DNA of 36,445 nt from Deltaproteobacteria bacterium (GTDB lineage: Bacteria > Myxococcota > JACRCW01). Of the stretch, positions 1 through 31,023 are shown in pieces. The translations under genes were made by a program, and so were the position numbers. The notes under the pieces were generated by a model. It saw only the letters and a list, made by a program, of their open reading frames with translations. It was not told the origin of the DNA and did not search any database. The stretch spans positions 1-36,445 of the forward strand of contig JACRCW010000149.1 in assembly GCA_016218805.1 (NCBI GenBank). Direction: 5' to 3'. Numbering within the stretch: position 1 is the first letter of the stretch; every line of letters begins with the position of its first letter.

Positions 1-1
1 C

Positions 2-1504
2 TCAGTGAACGGCGGGACGCCGATTGCGTTCTCGTACGACGACGACGGGCTGCTGACGCAAGCGGGCGCCCTGGTGCTCACGCGCGATGCGACCAATGGG
101 TTCGTGACGGGAACGACGCTGGGGAACGTGACGGATGCGTTCGGGTACAACGGGCATGGAGAGGTGACCGCGTACAACGCGCAGTTCCTGGGAACGACGA
201 TGTTCGCGGAGGGCTTTGAGCGCGACAACCTGGGGAGGATCACGACGAAGACGGAAACGGTGGTGGGGGAGACGCACGTGTACCAGTACGAGTATCATGT
301 GCGCGGTTGGCTGACGGACGTGTGGACCGATGGGGTGCACACGAGTCACTACGAGTATGACGCCAATGGGAACCGCCTCGCGCATACCAAGGCGGACGGG
401 ACGGTGGTGACGGCGGATTACGACGACCAGGACCGCATGCTGCGCAATGGAACGACGAACTACACGTGGACCAACAACGGCGAGATGCAGACCAGGACAG
501 AGACGCTCAGCGGCGCGGTGACGACGTATTCTTGGGATGAATTCGGGAATCTCGTGGAGGTCGTGCTGCCCGATGGAACGGACATCACGTACGTCATTGA
601 TGCGAGAAACCGCAGGGTCGGAAAGCGCGTCAACGGGACGCTGGTGCAGGGCTTCCTCTATGAGGACCAGTTGCGCATTGCCGCGGAGTTCGACGGCGCG
701 GGGAACGTCACGCGGCCGTTCGTGTACGCGCTGAGCCCCAACAGCCCGGAGATGATCCCGACGAGCAGCTGGACGTGGCGCGTGTTCAAGGACCACCTCG
801 GCAGTCCGCGGCTGGTGGTCGACGAGGGAAGCGGCGCGGTGGTCGCACGGATGGATTACGACGCGTTCGGTGTGGTGACGGCGGAGACGGGCGCGGGTGC
901 GGTGCCGCATGGGTTCGCGGGTGGGCTGTATGACCGGGACACGGAGCTCGTGCGGTTCGGGGCGCGCGATTACGACGCGGCGAGTGGCCGGTGGACTGCG
1001 AAGGAGCCGCTGCGGTTCACGGCTGCACTCAACTTCTATGAATACGCAGGGAACGATCCTGTCAATCGCGCCGATGCGACCGGACTCGCTGATGCAGCAA
1101 CGATGACCCAGGTTGCGCAGATCGTCGCTCTGTTGGTGTCCGGCGCAGCCGCCGTAAGCGGCGGGGTTGTCGCGCTGGCGGTCGCGGCACTGCCGGTGGC
1201 AGCAGTGGGCTTGGTCATCGTCGGCGCATTTGCGGCTGGGGTCGGGATCGGGGTTCTGGTCGCCCACTTTGGAGAACTGGCGGTCGAGGAGGCGATGGCC
1301 GTCGACACGGTCTCAACCGCCACAGTCTGCGAGGAGGAGAACGAGGAGGAAAAGGTCGAGGAGTGTGCGAAGAAGTCGGCCGGGGTGATGGCTCTTTGTT
1401 TGAGCCAAGGGAAGTCAACAGCCGTATGTTCTCGCGCCTACGACATCACCTTCGCAAGATGCATGCACTACCCGATTCCTCCTGAGTCACCGCTTCCGAA
1501 CTGA
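2..1504 (+). CDS. RHS/YD-repeat protein (5'-partial) with RHS core and ~138-aa C-terminal putative toxin domain
   Basis: YD repeats (YEYDANGNR, YDDQDR, YSWDEFGNL). RHS core motifs DHLGSPR, YDAFG, FAGGLYDRDTELVRFGARDYD, NDPVNRADATGL. Frame is open to the window edge. Confidence 0.93.
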   Translation, partial: SVNGGTPIAFSYDDDGLLTQAGALVLTRDATNGFVTGTTLGNVTDAFGYNGHGEVTAYNAQFLGTTMFAEGFERDNLGRITTKTETVVGETHVYQYEYHVRGWLTDVWTDGVHTSHYEYDANGNRLAHTKADGTVVTADYDDQDRMLRNGTTNYTWTNNGEMQTRTETLSGAVTTYSWDEFGNLVEVVLPDGTDITYVIDARNRRVGKRVNGTLVQGFLYEDQLRIAAEFDGAGNVTRPFVYALSPNSPEMIPTSSWTWRVFKDHLGSPRLVVDEGSGAVVARMDYDAFGVVTAETGAGAVPHGFAGGLYDRDTELVRFGARDYDAASGRWTAKEPLRFTAALNFYEYAGNDPVNRADATGLADAATMTQVAQIVALLVSGAAAVSGGVVALAVAALPVAAVGLVIVGAFAAGVGIGVLVAHFGELAVEEAMAVDTVSTATVCEEENEEEKVEECAKKSAGVMALCLSQGKSTAVCSRAYDITFARCMHYPIPPESPLPN

Positions 1505-1531
1505 GAATGGCAGTACCCGGGAGGATTGGTC

Positions 1532-1957
1532 ATGGCCCCCAAGCAGAAGGACATGAAGTGGGTCGAGAAGCTCACCGAGGGTGTTCACTTGGCAGCCGTC
1601 GATCCCGTCGCCGCAATCGGAGCGCTTCGGGGCTTGCTCGAGACGGTGGAAGCTGCGGGCAACGACGGAGCGGCGCACGCGGTGCTCGAGGTCCTCGTTG
1701 GGCTTCTTATCAACCAGAGGACGGAACTCGCCGACGCCGAACTGTTGGCGCTGAGGCTCGTTGAGCGATGCCCAGACAGACTCCACCTTTCATCTCTGGC
1801 GCGGGTGTGCCGGATGCGCGGAAATGAGAAGCAGGCGCACGAGTACGAGGAGCGGGCGCGCAGCGCGCCCAACAACCACTTAACGCCAGAGTTCCTGCGG
1901 GACTATGCGGAGGCGGTCCAAATGGCTGAAGAGGAGGACCGGCGAAGACGTCACTGA
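1532..1957 (+). CDS. Putative immunity protein (helical/TPR-like) for the RHS C-terminal domain
   Basis: Starts 27 bp after the RHS stop with GGGAGG SD at 1519-1524. Helical Ala/Leu-rich sequence. Immunity role is inferred from position only. Confidence 0.6.
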   Translation: MAPKQKDMKWVEKLTEGVHLAAVDPVAAIGALRGLLETVEAAGNDGAAHAVLEVLVGLLINQRTELADAELLALRLVERCPDRLHLSSLARVCRMRGNEKQAHEYEERARSAPNNHLTPEFLRDYAEAVQMAEEEDRRRRH

Positions 1958-2163
1958 CCTGTCTGCTTGGCCGCAGCGGTGACTCCATTCACGATCACCG
2001 TGCGGTGGGCTCCCTGGCGTCCTCTGTCTTCTTCTCCGGTCCACCCGCTGCGGCTGCGGTGCCGCGCTGGTCGCTGACGCCCGGCGGGAAAGCGCTCGGG
2101 CGTCACGGGCCATGCAGTCACTTCTCTGGCGACACTCACTGGCATGGCCCGGTCCGCCCTCGC

Positions 2164-2290
2164 TGTTCACATAATGCCTGGACGTTATCAGACGTGCCTC
2201 ACACCCGTGGCCGTGACCATGCATTTGACGACGTGACGGAGTGGGTCACGGCCCCGGGCGGCACATCTGATAACTGGCATTATGATGAAC
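2164..2290. repeat. Imperfect inverted repeat formed by two inverted dif-like (XerC/XerD) sites; candidate foldable recombination (att) site
   Basis: TGTTCACATAA-TGCCTGGACG-TTATCAGACGT (2164-2195) and ACATCTGATAA-CTGGCA-TTATGATGAAC (2263-2290) are inverted copies. Inner stem GGCCGTGACC (2209-2218)/GGTCACGGCC (2244-2253). ATAA-N6-TTATG core as in dif. Confidence 0.7.
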
Positions 2291-2764
2291 TTTCCCGCCG
2301 GGCTACCGCTTGTCGCGCTTACGCGCGGCCCCTTCGCCTCCGCGGGTGGACCTGCGCCGCATCTCCAACCAGCCGGAACTCTCCGCCCTGCGCTCCGCCC
2401 CTTGCGCCAAGGCGCTTCTTCCCGCCACCGAGTCCACCTGGGGTGCGCCTCGCCGCGCCACCTTCCGCGCACACTGCTGCCGCGCCCGCCGCGCCCTCAG
2501 CGGCAGATCTGCGGAGGGGGACCCTCCACCCGCACCGGCCGGGGCGCGGGTGGCAGCACCCTCCCGCCGTCAGCCCGCCGTTCACGACGGTGCCCAAGGC
2601 ACGCAGCCCGGCCTGGCGACGAGGTTGAGGCGCGGAGGCGGGACGCCGGGGAGGGCCAGCTCACCTCCGGCCGGCGCCGGGCGAGTCTCCCCTTGTGGGA
2701 ACCCGGTCGCGTGGGTGAGCATGTCGGCACTCAGCGTCGGCGTCCCGGCGGGGTCGGGAGCGCC

Positions 2765-3712
2765 ATGGAGCGGGCGAGCATGCGAGGGCTCATGGGTCGT
2801 GTGGGGATGGTCGCGGCCGCGTTGTGGGTCGTCTTCCACGCCGGCGAAGCGCGCGCGCAGTACCGGAACAACGGCATCTACTTTGAGGGCGGCGTCCAGA
2901 CCTACGAGTTCCTGCCGTATACGGTGGCGGCGTTTGCCTCCAGCCGCGCGGTCTATGAGACCGCCACCCAGGTGGAGAAGGCCGGCGGTCCGGCGCGGCC
3001 CAACTTTGTGCGTCACTGCGGGCAGATGAAGCCGTACGGCTTCCCGTGCGTGAACAACTGGTTCGGCCTGACGGATGGGCCGTACTTTGGCCTGGGCTAC
3101 CAGCGCGTCATCGGTGACCTGCTGGTGGACGTGTCGGAGAGTCCGCTCATCAAGAACATTGTGTTCAACTACGGGGCGCGGCTGGGCGGCGCGCTGACGT
3201 TGGCGGGCGGCGGGCACATGGCGCCGGTGTTCATTGTGCACCAGGACTTTGGCATCCGCTGGAACATCCTGGACGAGCGCATCCGCCCGTACGTGGGCGC
3301 GGGGTTTGGCTTCAATCTGTTTGTGGATCCCTTTGGGCTGGCGGGGCGCGTGCGCGCCAACAACGCGCAGTGCGCCAGCGGTGCCGGGTCCACCAACGCC
3401 GGCACGCCGGGTTACGTCCAGAGCGGCGGCGAGGGCTGCATTGCCACGCCCACCGGCGGCGACGTGTCCATCAGCGCGCTGGGGCCGTCGGTGAGTTCGG
3501 GCGCGGCGCTGTTCTACATCACCAGCTTCCCGGTGCTGCTCACCTTCCCGCGCCCGGAAGTGGGCCTGGAGTACTTCTTCATGGAGGACATCTCCGTGCA
3601 GGGGTACCTGAGCCCCGCGGTGTACTTCACGCTGCTCCCGCAGTTCCTGTTCCGCCCGCCGCTGGCCGGCCTGAGCCTGCGCGGCGGCGCCAACGTGGTG
3701 TTCTACTTCTGA
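2765..3712 (+). CDS. Outer-membrane beta-barrel protein
   Basis: Signal peptide ending ARA-Q, alternating amphipathic strands (RPYVGAGFGFN, VGLEYFF), C-terminal beta-signal NVVFYF. Start is uncertain (2765/2780/2792). Confidence 0.72.
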   Translation: MERASMRGLMGRVGMVAAALWVVFHAGEARAQYRNNGIYFEGGVQTYEFLPYTVAAFASSRAVYETATQVEKAGGPARPNFVRHCGQMKPYGFPCVNNWFGLTDGPYFGLGYQRVIGDLLVDVSESPLIKNIVFNYGARLGGALTLAGGGHMAPVFIVHQDFGIRWNILDERIRPYVGAGFGFNLFVDPFGLAGRVRANNAQCASGAGSTNAGTPGYVQSGGEGCIATPTGGDVSISALGPSVSSGAALFYITSFPVLLTFPRPEVGLEYFFMEDISVQGYLSPAVYFTLLPQFLFRPPLAGLSLRGGANVVFYF

Positions 3713-3734
3713 GGGCGGGCGCGCCCGCAGCGCC

Positions 3735-5138
3735 ATGCGCACGCAGAACCTTGCCATCCTGTTGACGGACATTGCCGGGTTCACCGCGGCCACAGCGCGG
3801 CAGACGCGCGAGCAGAACGCCGCCTGGCTGGCCACGCACGCGCAGCTGCTGCGGCCGGTGTTTGCCGCGTTCAACGGGACGGTGCGCAAGGAACTGGGGG
3901 ACGCGTTCCTGGTGACCTTTCCGTCCCCCACGGACGCGGTGCTGGCGGCCACCGCGGTGCTGGACCGCTTGTGGGCGTACAACCAGTCCGCTGCGGCGCT
4001 GATGCGCCTGAAGGTGCGTGTCGTCGTCAACATGGGTGAGGTACGCCTGGACAAGTCTGAGATCCTGGGCGAACCGGTGAACGTGGCGGCGCGCGTGGAG
4101 GACGTGGCGGACGGCGGGGACATCACGCTGACGGAGGCGGTGTACCTGACCATGAACCGCTCCGAGGTGGAGCTGGAACCGCTGGGGCCGCACACGCTCA
4201 AGGATGTCCAGGAGCCGGTGAACCTCTACCGCGTCAAACAGGTGGTCCCCCGCCCCGCCGAGGGCGAACTGCACGCGAGCTACCCCTACGGCGGCACGCA
4301 GCTGCACCGCGTGGCCGCCGCGGAGGCTGCACCGCCGTCGCGGGGCAATGACCTGCGCGGGACGGCGCGGGACCGGATTTCCGTCGTCAACGAGGCGTTC
4401 CAGCGCTGGGGCGGCGCGCGGCTGGTGGGGCGGGTGGCGGCGCTGCTGGTGCTGCTGGCCGGCGTGGGCGCCGGCGCCAAGATGGGGTGGGACACCGTGC
4501 AGAACCAGCAGGCGGATCCCTTCCGGCTGGTGGCGGACCGCGTGCAGGCGGGGGACCTGCCCGGTGCGTCCCAGGCGTGGGATGACGCCGACGAAAAGAA
4601 GGCCGAGCCGGCGTGGAAGCTGGACTACTACCTGGGGCGCATCAGCGCGCTGGAGGGCGAATGCGGCGACGTCATGGATGCGTACCGGCGCGCGGTGAAG
4701 GCGCACGAGCCGCTGGCGGAGGATGAGGCCCTGGCGCGTGACGTGGTGAAGTGCGTGGACACGGTGGACGGGAGCGCCGCGAAGTTCATCCGCAAGTGGC
4801 TGGGGAAGAAGGCGGCGCTGCCCTGGTTGCGTGCGGCCGCGCGTGACGGCACGCGGCCGGCCCAGGCGCGCCTGGCGGTGCTGTCCATGCTGGATGAGAT
4901 GGGCGAGCCCAATGCGGTGGACCAGGGCGCGGTGCTGGTGGAGCTGCTGCGCGGCGATCACCCGTGCAAACAGCGCCGCGAGGCGGTGCTGCGGCTGGCC
5001 GCGCGCCGTGAGAAGGACGCACTGGATGCGCTGCGCGCGGAACTGAAAGACAGCGAGGGCGAGGGGAAGAGGGTCAAGGCCAACGGGTGCCTGGTGGGCG
5101 CGCTGGGCGAAGCCGTCCGCACCATCGAGGGCGGCTGA
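3735..5138 (+). CDS. Class III adenylate/guanylate cyclase with TM helix and C-terminal helical-repeat domain
   Basis: LTDIAGFT, KELGDAF and GEPVNVAARVE catalytic motifs. TM segment VAALLVLLAGVGAG. TPR/HEAT-like C-terminus. Confidence 0.88.
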   Translation: MRTQNLAILLTDIAGFTAATARQTREQNAAWLATHAQLLRPVFAAFNGTVRKELGDAFLVTFPSPTDAVLAATAVLDRLWAYNQSAAALMRLKVRVVVNMGEVRLDKSEILGEPVNVAARVEDVADGGDITLTEAVYLTMNRSEVELEPLGPHTLKDVQEPVNLYRVKQVVPRPAEGELHASYPYGGTQLHRVAAAEAAPPSRGNDLRGTARDRISVVNEAFQRWGGARLVGRVAALLVLLAGVGAGAKMGWDTVQNQQADPFRLVADRVQAGDLPGASQAWDDADEKKAEPAWKLDYYLGRISALEGECGDVMDAYRRAVKAHEPLAEDEALARDVVKCVDTVDGSAAKFIRKWLGKKAALPWLRAAARDGTRPAQARLAVLSMLDEMGEPNAVDQGAVLVELLRGDHPCKQRREAVLRLAARREKDALDALRAELKDSEGEGKRVKANGCLVGALGEAVRTIEGG

Positions 5139-5140
5139 GC

Positions 5141-5146
5141 TAGAGT
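5141..5146 (+). promoter_or_regulatory. Putative -10 hexamer (TAGAGT) 8 nt upstream of the ATG; near-leaderless promoter
   Basis: TANNNT match in very GC-rich context with no SD before ATG 5155. The same layout occurs at ligD and at 36152. Confidence 0.4.
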
Positions 5147-5154
5147 GCCCGCCC

Positions 5155-7191
5155 ATGTCCGAGCTGATTCCCCTCCCGTTTGACCGTCTGTTGTCCCGCA
5201 TGTTCCGTGAGAAGGAACGCGAGCAGTGCGTGTTCGGCCTGCCCGTGGACAAGTTTGCTCCCGCGCCGTCGTCAGGACGGTCATGGTCCGTACGCTTTCA
5301 CGGGCATGATGCCGCCACGCCGCTGGGGCCGGCCGCCGGGCCGCACACGCAGCTGGCGCAGAACATTGTGCTCAGCTTCCTGGGCGGCGGCCGCATCATG
5401 GAGCTCAAGACGGTGCAGGTGATGGACCGCCTCACCATCCCGCGCCCGTGCATTGACATGCGCACCGCCGGTTACAACGTGGAATGGTCGCAGGAGCTGA
5501 CGCTGGAGCAGTCGCTGGAGGAATACGTCAAGGCCTCCATGCTGGTGGACATCCTGCGCGCGGCGGGCTGGCCGGAGTTGCCAGCAGCATCATGCGCCAA
5601 CGTGTTTGACATGAGCGTGGGGTATGACCTGGCGGGCATCCAGGGTGACCGTGTGCAGGCGTTCATCCGCGGCATGCAGGACGCCACCGCCGTGGTGGAC
5701 CGGTTGCGCGCGCAGCTCCCCGCCGAGTTCCGCCGCTACCGCGACCTGCCGTTCCGCACCCGCCTGTCCGACACGCTCACCCTGTCCACCTTCCACGGCT
5801 GCCCGCCCGACGAGATTGAGCGCATTGCCGCGTTCCTGATGGAACACAACGGGCTGCACGTCATTGTGAAGCTCAATCCCACGCTGCTGGGGCCCGGGGA
5901 CGCGCGGCGCATCCTCAATGACCAGCTGGGTTGGCCGGACCACATCCCGGACGAAGCGTTTGCCGAGGACGCGAGTTGGGACCAGGCCAGCGCGTTTGTG
6001 GGCCGGCTGGGGGAGCAGGCGCGCGCGCTGGGGCGCAGCTTTGGGGTGAAGTTCTCCAACACGCTCATTGTGGAGAACCGCGACACGTTCTTCCCCTCCG
6101 AGAAGGTCATGTACATGTCCGGCCCGCCGCTGCATGTGCTTGCCATGACGCTGGTGGGGCGGTTCCGCGCGGCGTTTGGTGACCGCTTCCCCGTGTCCTT
6201 CTCCGGTGGGATCAACAAGAGCAACTTCGCGGATGCGGTATCGCTGGGGATCGTTCCCGTCACCGTGTGCAGTGACCTGCTGCGCACCAACGGCTACGAG
6301 CGCCTGGCCGGCTACTTCAAGGACCTGGACGCGCGCATGGCGGCAGCGGGCGCGCGGGACCTGGACGAGTTTGTGGTGCGCGGGCGCGGGAAGGCGGAGG
6401 CGGCGCTGGCGCGCGCGGGCGCGGACGAACCACACACGCGGGCCTGCCGCGACGCCTTGGCGACGGGCGGCAACCTGCGCGCGGCCGCCGGGGAGGCGCT
6501 CTACGCCAAGTGGGTGGCGGAGGCGCGCCTGCTCAACACCGCGGACTACGTGGATGGACTGGCCCGCAACCCCCGGTACGCGCGCGCGCAGAACGCCAAG
6601 CCGCCCAGGAAGGTGGGGTCACACCTCACGCTGTTTGACTGTCTTACCTGTGACAAGTGCCTGCCGGTGTGCCCCAACAACGCCAACTTCACCTACGCGC
6701 TGCCCGCCGCGGAGATCCCGGTCCTCAAGGCCCGTCACGACGGGCATGCGTGGAAAGCGGAGCGGCAGGGTGCCCTGAAGACGGAGCAGAAGCACCAGAT
6801 CGCCAACTATGCGGACTTCTGCAATGAGTGCGGAAACTGTGACGTGTTCTGCCCGGAGGATGGCGGGCCGTACGTGGTGAAGCCGCGGTTCTTTGGCAGC
6901 CACGAGGAGTTCCGCCGGCACGCGCGCCTGGACGGCATGCACGTGGCGCGGCGGGGCGGCGCGCTGCACGTGCACGGGCGCTTCAACGCGGTGGAGTACG
7001 TGCTGGTCAGTGACGGCGGCCGGTCACAGTTCTCCGGCAAGGGGTTTGACGTGCGCTTCCGCGAGGACGCACCGGAGAGCACGCTGGAAGGGCAGGGCAG
7101 CGTGGAGGTGGACCTGACCTGGGCCGCGGTGATGCGCTGGCTGGGCAACGCGGTGATGGACGCACGCGCGGCCAACTACGTGAACACCTGA
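5155..7191 (+). CDS. YgfK-family Fe-S oxidoreductase-like protein lacking the central FAD/NAD(P) domain
   Basis: YgfK N-terminal motifs GPAAGPHTQLAQNI, ELKTVQ, RPCID, YNVEWSQEL, LSTFHGCPPDEIE, KLNPTLLG. Two 4Fe-4S motifs CLTCDKCLPVCPN and CNECGNCDVFCP. Confidence 0.8.
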   Translation: MSELIPLPFDRLLSRMFREKEREQCVFGLPVDKFAPAPSSGRSWSVRFHGHDAATPLGPAAGPHTQLAQNIVLSFLGGGRIMELKTVQVMDRLTIPRPCIDMRTAGYNVEWSQELTLEQSLEEYVKASMLVDILRAAGWPELPAASCANVFDMSVGYDLAGIQGDRVQAFIRGMQDATAVVDRLRAQLPAEFRRYRDLPFRTRLSDTLTLSTFHGCPPDEIERIAAFLMEHNGLHVIVKLNPTLLGPGDARRILNDQLGWPDHIPDEAFAEDASWDQASAFVGRLGEQARALGRSFGVKFSNTLIVENRDTFFPSEKVMYMSGPPLHVLAMTLVGRFRAAFGDRFPVSFSGGINKSNFADAVSLGIVPVTVCSDLLRTNGYERLAGYFKDLDARMAAAGARDLDEFVVRGRGKAEAALARAGADEPHTRACRDALATGGNLRAAAGEALYAKWVAEARLLNTADYVDGLARNPRYARAQNAKPPRKVGSHLTLFDCLTCDKCLPVCPNNANFTYALPAAEIPVLKARHDGHAWKAERQGALKTEQKHQIANYADFCNECGNCDVFCPEDGGPYVVKPRFFGSHEEFRRHARLDGMHVARRGGALHVHGRFNAVEYVLVSDGGRSQFSGKGFDVRFREDAPESTLEGQGSVEVDLTWAAVMRWLGNAVMDARAANYVNT

Positions 7192-30414: not shown

Positions 30415-31023
30415 TCAGGAAACCCCGCCCGCCAGCCGCTTGAGCGCCTCGCGGATGAGGACGTCCATGCCCGCCCCGGCGCGCGCCTGTTCGTCCAGCG
30501 CCTTCACCACCTTCTCCACCTGTGGCGCGCGGTAGCCCAGGTTCAGCAACGCGCTCTGCAGGTCCATCAGGATGCGCGTGGGCGTGGCGGGTGCGCCGGC
30601 CACCGGTGGCGCCATCCCCGGCCGCATCAGCTTGCCCTGCAACTCCACGCACAACCGCTCCGCCGTTTTGCGCCCCACGCCGGGAATCGCGGTGAGGCGC
30701 GCCAGGTCCTTGCTCTCCACCGCGCGCGCCAGTTCATCCGGTTCAATGCCGGACAGGATGGCCAGCGCCAGCTTGGGTCCCACCCCGTTGACGGACATCA
30801 GCGTCTGGAACGCCGCGCGCCCCTCATCCGCCAGGAAACCAAACAACTGCAGCGCGTCCTCCCGCACGTGCGTGTGGATGCGGAGGGTGACCTTCTCGCC
30901 CACGGCGCCCACGCGGCCCAGGTCCATCAGCGGCATTGCCACCTCGTAACCCACGCCGCCCACGTCCAGAAGAATGGTCCGCAGGTCCTTCTCCACCAGC
31001 GTTCCCACCAGGCGGCCGATCAT
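30415..31023 (-). CDS. ruvA: Holliday junction branch migration protein RuvA
   Basis: MIGRLVG, DVGGVGYEV, HVREDALQLFGF, VNGVGPKLALAIL, IPGVGRKTAERL, ALLNLGY. Confidence 0.97.
   Translation of the reverse strand: MIGRLVGTLVEKDLRTILLDVGGVGYEVAMPLMDLGRVGAVGEKVTLRIHTHVREDALQLFGFLADEGRAAFQTLMSVNGVGPKLALAILSGIEPDELARAVESKDLARLTAIPGVGRKTAERLCVELQGKLMRPGMAPPVAGAPATPTRILMDLQSALLNLGYRAPQVEKVVKALDEQARAGAGMDVLIREALKRLAGGVS

Follow-up and report, generated by a model that had tools for sequence, protein, structure and literature searches.

What does a foldable palindrome of 127 bases, composed of two inverted dif-like sites, do just 3' of an RHS toxin/immunity pair? The question is raised by positions 2164–2290 of the window, by which we mean the whole stretch of DNA that was analysed, i.e. 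the 36,445 nucleotides of contig JACRCW010000149.1 (C124, taken entire) from the Deltaproteobacteria bacterium assembly GCA_016218805.1 (Myxococcota). This source assembly (G000) consists of 170 contigs, amounts to 6.43 Mb and has a GC content of 70%; G001 is the sole other genome of the same family and belongs to a different genus (G, C and L numbers are our handles for genomes, contigs and loci). The hairpin is probably a site of recombination at which the Xer enzymes of the host mobilise RHS toxin modules, or did so in the past. More specifically, we put the chance at slightly less than even that it is a folded Xer-type recombination site of dif origin at the distal end of these modules. 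What is observed are the sites and their resemblance to dif, a hairpin family associated with RHS modules, covariation and a strand bias; Xer binding, strand exchange and present-day activity are what we infer from the comparisons presented below.

Two inverted dif-like sites and the chromosomal dif

A preliminary description of this DNA, made from the letters alone, had reported two inverted dif-like sites 67 bp apart, and the letters are exactly as given there. The left (L) site reads ACGTCTGATAA-CGTCCAGGCA-TTATGTGAACA on the minus strand (2195..2164) and the right (R) site ACATCTGATAA-CTGGCA-TTATGATGAAC on the plus strand (2263–2290). The spacing between the sites is 67 nt (2196–2262), and the XerD arms are outermost. 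The sites and the stems in and around them are:

2164–2195, minus strand: L site, with XerC-type arm 2195–2185, 10-nt centre 2184–2175 and XerD-type arm 2174–2164
2263–2290, plus strand: R site, with XerC-type arm 2263–2273, 6-nt centre 2274–2279 and XerD-type arm 2280–2290 containing the extra base A2285
2204–2258, no strand assigned: predicted inner stem-loop between the XerC-type arms, with stem 2204–2218/2244–2258 (15 nt, 93%), from the fold
2098–2159, no strand assigned: accessory hairpin H1, an inverted repeat of 18 nt (83%) that adjoins the long-spacer (L) site on its 5' side
2038–2092, no strand assigned: predicted left arm of an outer stem, which pairs with 2290–2352, from inverted repeats and the fold of 331 nt
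2290–2352, no strand assigned: predicted right arm of the outer stem, from inverted repeats of 14 nt (100%) and 30 nt (80%) and the fold

A repeat finder placed the paired arms at 2184–2198/2260–2274 (15 nt, 93%) and at 2170–2178/2276–2284 (9 nt, 100%), and the additional stem that had been described between the sites is present (15 nt at 93%). The central regions are unequal, C-GTCCA-GGCA in L (10 nt) and C-T-GGCA in R (6 nt), with the ends C...GGCA common to both. The other structural details of the preliminary description are all found in the letters: TGCC pairs with GGCA next to the XerD-type arms, the mismatch C2193:A2265 is C:A on the top strand and G:T on the bottom strand, and A2285 is a single extra (extrahelical) base in the XerD-type arm of R. 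Folding of a 146-nt stretch as single-stranded DNA yielded −34.9 kcal/mol (z −4.5), and 0 of 200 shuffled sequences folded as well; with RNA parameters the z-scores were −5.9 for the top and −6.0 for the bottom strand. The extended fold of 331 nt had a z-score of −8.5 against shuffles, yet 32 of 700 random genome windows folded equally well.

A candidate for the chromosomal dif was found at C29:43187–43214 (L009 8188–8215), where the minus strand reads AGGTCCGATAA TCAACG TTATGTTAACT. The site is intergenic, is flanked by a short inverted repeat (GTCCGGACG) and is preceded by a run of GCGGAAA-type repeats, and the 2-kb GC skew turns there from mostly positive to negative; a single 11-6-11 site with consensus arms at a GC-skew switch has every property asked of a chromosomal dif. 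The pattern GATAA-N6-TTATG occurs twice in the 6.43 Mb, in the C29 site and in the R site. When the spacer is allowed to vary from N3 to N15 the assembly contains four matches, the additional ones being the L site, which is the only N10 match, and one N7 match on C57. The shorter pattern ATAA-N6-TTAT also has four matches in the assembly, and the half-sites TCYGATAA and TTATGNNAAC occur 10 and 4 times, respectively, counted on both strands. Most high-GC genomes among 61 of the phylum have exactly one GATAA-N6-TTATG, and 20 single sites of relatives are described by XerC arms NNGTCYGATAA, a spacer of N6 and XerD arms TTATG(T/G)NAA(C/A)N, also summarised as TTATG(T/G)NAAYT. The dif predictions for Myxococcus xanthus and Anaeromyxobacter in Table 1 of PMC2731167 agree in form with this lineage consensus, and the XerC arm of M. 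xanthus is the same. Together, the C29 site, the sites of the relatives and the published predictions indicate that C29 carries the chromosomal dif and that the window sites are copies of the lineage-specific site.

The XerC-type arm of L is identical (11/11) to the dif XerC arm of the relatives L018 and L019, and the XerC-type arm of R matches that of L at 10/11. When compared with the host dif on C29, L scores 9/11 in the XerC arm and 9/11 in the XerD arm (to TTATGTTAACT), and R 8/11 and 7/11, respectively; the XerD arm of R breaks the AA at arm positions 8–9, which is kept in all 20 real dif sites. The arms are therefore related to the site that the preliminary description had proposed to look for. 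The match of 8/11 to the E. coli arm, on which that description had relied, holds for both XerD-like arms, yet the arms are much closer to the host's own dif; the E. coli arm quoted is also the one printed for V. cholerae dif1.

Some other motif matches were set aside. The N7 match (C57:32877) lies in a divergent promoter beside a putative LysR-type open reading frame (ORF). A motif GACGACGTGACG, considered as an iteron, is present in 15 copies genome-wide and hence not specific. The 17 core-motif matches in G052 were rejected as dif, since the seven copies that were fetched all had an identical context and thus represent the interior of a multicopy repeat. The core motif in that 10-Mb genome is GATAAGAAGATTTATG (e.g. 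at L031 2203), and it is located inside a repeated putative transposase gene unrelated to dif. TTATGTCAAC, at a distance of 1.5 kb from the C29 dif, belongs to a small palindrome in an intergenic stretch where the ORFs diverge.

A hairpin family downstream of RHS modules

A BLAST search of G000 and 60 relatives with the hairpin returned only the hairpin itself. A pattern search for facing XerC arms over 401 genomes of the phylum matched 17 genomes, and the sole convincing relative was in G001. The family copies in this genome are C62:1017–1175, C79:32749–32914 and a diverged, inverted copy at C79:31620–31770. The second was found by BLAST with the first (87% over 122 nt), and the third was revealed by a covariance model built from three copies; among 61 genomes the model matches only G000 and G001. 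A search for further copies flanking cargo had been proposed, and the three copies in G001 are located at RHS/toxin modules. Overall, each of the four family members (three loci in two genera) lies 0.2–1.9 kb downstream of an RHS or toxin-immunity module. The genes of the module in the window are:

2–1504, plus strand: 3' part of an RHS/YD-repeat toxin gene, an ORF that runs off the contig start (Pfam TEN_YD-shell 6.3e-23, RHS_repeat 9.5e-14)
1526–1957, plus strand: ORF call of 143 amino acids at the position of an immunity gene, without a Pfam family

The left side of the RHS gene is unassembled, as the contig starts there, and its C-terminal toxin region has a lower GC content (0.60–0.64 at 1201–2000). 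Judged from its position, the 143-residue ORF would be the immunity gene; when 400 genomes of the phylum were searched for its homologues, four weak matches resulted, which were of no use for genomic context. To the right of the hairpin, about 480 nt of C-rich non-coding DNA are followed by genes for a cyclase, LigD, CheA/Y/W, MnmG and RuvA. On C79 of G001, the RHS gene (RHS_repeat 5.4e-130) ends at 30870 with a low-GC tail, and both hairpin copies of this contig are situated 3' of it. C62 starts with a short ORF and an ORF with LRV repeats, after which the hairpin follows at 1017–1175. The toxin-immunity parts at the G001 loci show no similarity to those of the window, and the right flanks of all hairpin copies consist of unrelated housekeeping genes. 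Relative to the toxin genes upstream of them, three of the four copies point the same way and one is inverted. A search for an empty site by synteny with G001 gave a clear counterpart only for the gene at 5155–7188.

The two opposed copies on C79 (31620–32914; L186 9621–10915) bracket about 1 kb of DNA with an open frame of 233 codons that has no Pfam match. Possibly this segment is an orphan module with a site at either end.

Within G001, the similarity between the two loci (C62 858–1156 with C79 32587–32888; 76% over 313 nt) forms a block that extends from about 180 nt before the hairpin to shortly after it. Between the genera, conservation is confined to the hairpin and its surroundings. 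Of all stretches, the apical loop of the inner stem-loop (approximately 2219–2243) is the one that the family copies conserve best, with ATTTGACGNCGTNACG kept in the alignment. Hairpin H1 is similar to the inner hairpin found in the copies of G001 (blastn of G001:C62 1068–1127 with window 2101–2159, 73%).

The fold itself is conserved. Of the 47 consensus pairs in a three-sequence alignment, 9 have changed on both sides and still pair. In the C62 copy TTATG has become TTCTG on both arms, and in the C79 copy TGATAA has become GGATAA on both arms, a position at which the 20 real sites have YGATAA; the third G001 copy has CGTAA in place of the dif arm letters. In all five copies for which the two strands were compared with DNA parameters, i.e. 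the four family members and the metagenomic copy L151, the bottom strand was more stable by 5–11 kcal/mol.

Possible roles of the hairpin

We propose that, with the XerC-arm/XerD-arm site of the lineage present twice, in opposite orientations and with its XerD arms on the outside, a single strand, best the bottom one, would fold into a stem with one XerC-type and one XerD-type duplex arm, a largely unpaired centre and a branched tip. The housekeeping XerC and XerD would most likely act on this folded form; a third, Xer/IntI-like recombinase would be a less likely actor. A single strand would be exchanged and replication would finish the reaction, in the manner of CTXphi attP(+) and integron attC; RHS toxin modules could then be inserted at different chromosomal places or exchanged. 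In this myxobacterial family, the small group of homologous hairpins would denote where RHS toxin-immunity modules end on their distal (3') side. The genome encodes XerD (353 bits, above the cut-off) and XerC (334.9 bits versus a cut-off of 335.15). The third tyrosine recombinase (G000:C165:24776–25741, 257 nt from the contig end) scores below all NCBIfam cut-offs, with 181.5 bits against TIGR02249 (integron integrase, cut-off 265). It was set aside as the cognate enzyme, as its homologues are sporadic in the phylum, often at contig ends and unlinked to hairpins.

How RHS and polymorphic-toxin modules move is poorly understood, and their exchange is usually ascribed to homologous recombination at the conserved core. 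To our knowledge, CTX-type hairpin recombination is known in detail only for Vibrio filamentous phages. A conserved, foldable Xer-type site at the module end would offer a concrete and testable route that needs no dedicated recombinase and, if true, would extend CTX-type hairpin recombination to another phylum, another cargo and a reversed geometry.

The design of the hairpin is close to that of CTXphi attP(+). According to a review and an EMBO J paper, attP1 and attP2 of CTXphi are inverted, lie about 90 bp apart and have centres of 12 and 7 nt; one variant has a 6-nt centre (GGGGCA versus GGTGGTGCGGCA). One strand is exchanged by XerC, the remainder of the process is left to replication, and ligation needs base pairing beside the cleavage point, according to the same sources. 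Common to both systems are two inverted dif-like sites within about 130–150 nt that form a branched hairpin, unequal centres with shared ends and an unpaired middle (12 + 7 or 6 nt in CTX, 10 + 6 nt here), and mismatched or unpaired bases in both arms. In addition, the element lacks a recombinase of its own and the host XerC and XerD are present.

Integron attC sites are imperfect palindromes 3' of variable cargo, in which the fold is conserved, the centre is unpaired, an extrahelical base is present, the tip varies and the bottom strand is favoured. The hairpin at 2164–2290 is similar to attC in being a local hairpin 3' of a variable module, with conservation of fold over sequence, an unpaired centre, an extra base and a favoured bottom strand. 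It differs in that its arms copy the host dif and not the attC core sites, that no integron integrase reaches the cut-off in G000, and that there is neither an attI nor an array, but one copy in G000 and at most two per locus in G001.

Plain dif sites also border toxin islands. In Neisseria subflava, dif sites are reported beside vgrG effector-immunity clusters, including Rhs, with the host XerCD proposed as the mover (PMC10210955). This N. subflava case and the gonococcal genetic island share with the present locus that dif-like sites border acquired toxin/effector-immunity islands. They differ in that plain duplex dif sites flank those islands at or near dif, whereas here there is a single hairpin at one end, and the region upstream in the one case that is assembled contained no partner. 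The pdif modules of Acinetobacter plasmids are inverted XerC/D-type sites with small accessory modules, including toxin-antitoxin pairs. Those are separate duplex sites flanking kb-sized modules; the sites of the hairpin are 67 nt apart and pair together. In the literature searched no paper was found that links RHS modules to an Xer hairpin. The suggestion that the route might be undescribed is tempered by the dif sites noted beside effector-immunity islands in N. subflava.

A number of observations weigh against a folded Xer site. Firstly, the hairpin is not at the chromosomal dif, which is on another contig (C29). The window centres begin with C and the host dif centre TCAACG with T, so no XerC-side base is shared and the XerC-side homology needed by CTX integration is missing. 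The hairpin is moreover intact, unlike the product expected had it recombined with a target. The centre mismatch, the distance from dif and the intactness together imply that the hairpin is not the product of its own recombination with the dif of this chromosome. Secondly, the geometry is the reverse of that in CTXphi, where the XerC arms are at the base of the stem; the preliminary description had stated this, and the CTXphi record agrees (attP1 as XerC arm-12 nt-XerD arm, then about 90 nt and an inverted attP2). In further contrast to CTXphi, no filamentous-phage or rolling-circle genes were found within reach of the hairpin, the cargo is a chromosomal RHS toxin-immunity module, and the site is a predicted one. 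Thirdly, Pfam searches showed no Rep, relaxase, phage or recombinase genes in the window, which has 21 ORFs, or next to the G001 copies. The one fully assembled RHS gene, on G001:C79, is preceded by 14 kb without a dif-like site or family member; the partner att site, Rep/relaxase or recombinase that the preliminary description had proposed to look for did not appear at these places. Fourthly, BLAST and the covariance model revealed no second copy in G000, and 3 of the 6 RHS 3' ends lack a hairpin in an unfiltered model search (two ends on G000:C158 and one on G001:C30). Fifthly, the G001 arms drift from the dif consensus, including at positions that are invariant in the 20 real sites, which makes XerCD binding there doubtful; as the arms stay paired, the drift argues for a selected fold, but it weakens the case for XerCD binding to every copy. 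The family comprises four copies from two genomes, which is thin for covariation. Finally, 907 of 2500 random 146-nt windows of the genome fold at least as well, so the energy of the hairpin is ordinary for a genome with 70% GC and the case rests on palindrome and motif rather than on energy. The proposal of an XerCD-mobilised boundary of an element or toxin cassette retains the dif-like arms, the CTX-like design and the recurring toxin cargo; a location at dif, a partner and XerC-side homology did not materialize.

The alternative that survives best is that the hairpins are relics without a present function, left to decay after Xer-mediated insertion (in the manner of integrative mobile elements exploiting Xer, IMEX) had brought in the RHS modules, once or a few times. 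We consider this unlikely. It accommodates the erosion of dif features in G001 (XerD arm TTCTG, XerC arm GGATAA and CGTAA in the third copy), the score of only 7/11 for the XerD arm of the window R site, the lack of partner sites or element genes and the incompatibility of the centres with the host dif. Neutral decay would, however, break the stem and not co-vary, and the 9 of 47 pairs maintained through double changes therefore count against a relic, as do an apical loop that is conserved across genera when the flanks are not and a strand bias that is consistent in 5 of 5 copies.

Rather less probable is a role as a structured transcript or as a protein-binding palindrome for the rhs operon (3' stabiliser, antisense RNA or operator), to which the dif ancestry would be incidental. 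The common orientation of 3 of 4 copies relative to the upstream toxin genes, the strong RNA fold, the conserved apical loop and the preservation of the fold despite the drift of the arms from dif would fit such a role. On the other hand, one copy is inverted, and the sense (top) strand is the one that folds worse in 5 of 5 copies. No terminator-like site is present at 2038–2352, the only one in 1400–3000 being at 1684–1703, and an Rfam scan of 1–6000 gave no family at the hairpin. Matches of 11/11 and 9/11 to AT-rich dif arms in a genome of 70% GC, moreover, require an origin at the DNA level.

A conserved 3' homology block, with which RecA-type recombination together with the RHS core would swap the toxin-immunity part and in which the hairpin would be a passenger, we hold to be improbable. 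The arrangement in G001, with variable toxin-immunity parts between a conserved RHS core and a conserved block (76% over 313 nt), is of this kind. Positions 1–6000 were also compared with contigs that one study had assembled from four runs, one of which is the probable source; only contigs were used, from which rare forms are dropped. Among these contigs no excision or inversion joint was found at 2164–2290. Unitigs break at 2035–2063 in two runs, and no repeat of 2030–2070 elsewhere in the assembly was found that would explain the break. One contig from the probable source run joins about position 960 (RHS core) to 2034, a weak junction with a 30-nt side, a likeness threshold of 90 and unknown letters in between. 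The unitig breaks and this junction, weakly in favour of a homology block, also hint weakly that the population contains another toxin-immunity module, with its end at the start of the structured block. Homologous recombination leaves the likeness to dif, the asymmetric centres, the strand bias and the covariation unexplained, and between the genera it is only the hairpin and what lies around it that is conserved.

That the R site acts as a plain duplex dif, i.e. a second functional dimer-resolution site of a chromosome or replicon, has in its favour the 11-6-11 layout of the site and the fact that GATAA-N6-TTATG is matched only here and at one other place in the assembly. It is hardly credible in view of the 7/11 XerD arm with AA broken at arm positions 8–9, the GC skew, which on the right of the site remains positive in contrast to C29, the core genes on the contig (e.g. 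mnmG and ruvA) and the canonical dif on C29.

The folded, dif-derived Xer site is thus the explanation that we prefer. A bolder version of it, which we think unlikely to hold, is that the RHS toxin-immunity modules of this family are integron-like cassettes, with the dif-derived hairpin as the equivalent of attC and its bottom strand recombined by the housekeeping XerCD. Single-strand hairpin recombination would then have been invented independently, in a geometry opposite to that of CTXphi, and the hairpin would represent one instance of a wider, undescribed class of sites with outermost XerD arms that could also serve integrase-less tailed phages, plasmid-like elements and, in symmetric form, the sole dif locus of Gemmatales chromosomes.

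Double sites in phages, metagenomes and other genomes

Viral contigs were scanned for double sites with the XerD arms outermost, which yielded two designs in four contigs. One of these is a 48,167-bp IMG/VR contig with direct terminal repeats that is rated 100% complete (L039 3001–3099, the same as L145 5001–5099; also L040 2616–2714). This 48-kb tailed phage (terminase, portal) has an asymmetric double site with centres of 9 and 6 nt between the packaging genes and a block of small genes, and showed no Pfam match to a tyrosine or serine recombinase. It is a candidate for a tailed phage that exploits Xer, or the double site may serve dimer resolution. Viral scans with loop lengths of 20–50 and 80–110 gave no matches. 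A control scan of the viral set for XerC-outermost sites with the lineage arms returned two AT-rich matches with unpaired arms, which were discarded.

In metagenome contigs, the asymmetric pattern matched 12 stretches, for example L148 167–275, L149 2714–2819, L147 1536–1641, L142 5001–5102, L151 450–560 and L150 829–943. In several of these sites the short centre equals the long centre minus an internal piece (e.g. TT-AAGTT-TGGA versus TTTGGA), and the G-versus-A difference at arm position 3, the source of the C:A mismatch, is shared by the window, L151, L149 and L147. The neighbours of the metagenome sites look mobile (ParB; a helix-turn-helix protein with RelA_SpoT and a primase-helicase; HNH). 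The recurrence of the asymmetric design, with outer XerD arms, on such contigs and in the phage speaks for the proposed Xer role of the hairpin. L151, with 68% GC, has an accessory hairpin in the position of 2098–2159 and gave a weak match to the covariance model (22.5 bits). L150 and L151 are high-GC contigs of 1.4 kb with C-rich, apparently non-coding flanks; these flanks have no real similarity to G000, and the contig ends are without circular overlap.

Among species genomes the pattern matched 98 stretches (L044–L141), with titles listed for 80 of the 98. About 90 of the 98, among the matches listed, are from Gemmatales or other Planctomycetota (e.g. L066 6001–6092 and L094 6001–6091). These loci consist of two complete inverted dif sites with the XerD arms outermost, 6-nt non-complementary centres and a distance of 45–70 nt. 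In 4 of 5 large genomes checked, the two are the only TCYGATAA-N6-TTATG sites, and the difference in GC skew (left minus right) was positive in 33 of 50 loci, which is a weak tendency. No paper on inverted dif pairs of Gemmatales was found in the literature searched. The integrase-less phage and plasmid contigs with an asymmetric double site, and the Gemmatales chromosomes in which an inverted pair is the sole dif locus, offer further leads.

In metagenome-assembled genomes of three Bacteroidales species (L046, L081 and L106), a conserved cluster of three dif-like sites is located downstream of gyrA and a TPR gene; one of the sites is inverted and has a 9-nt centre, and the other two are direct.

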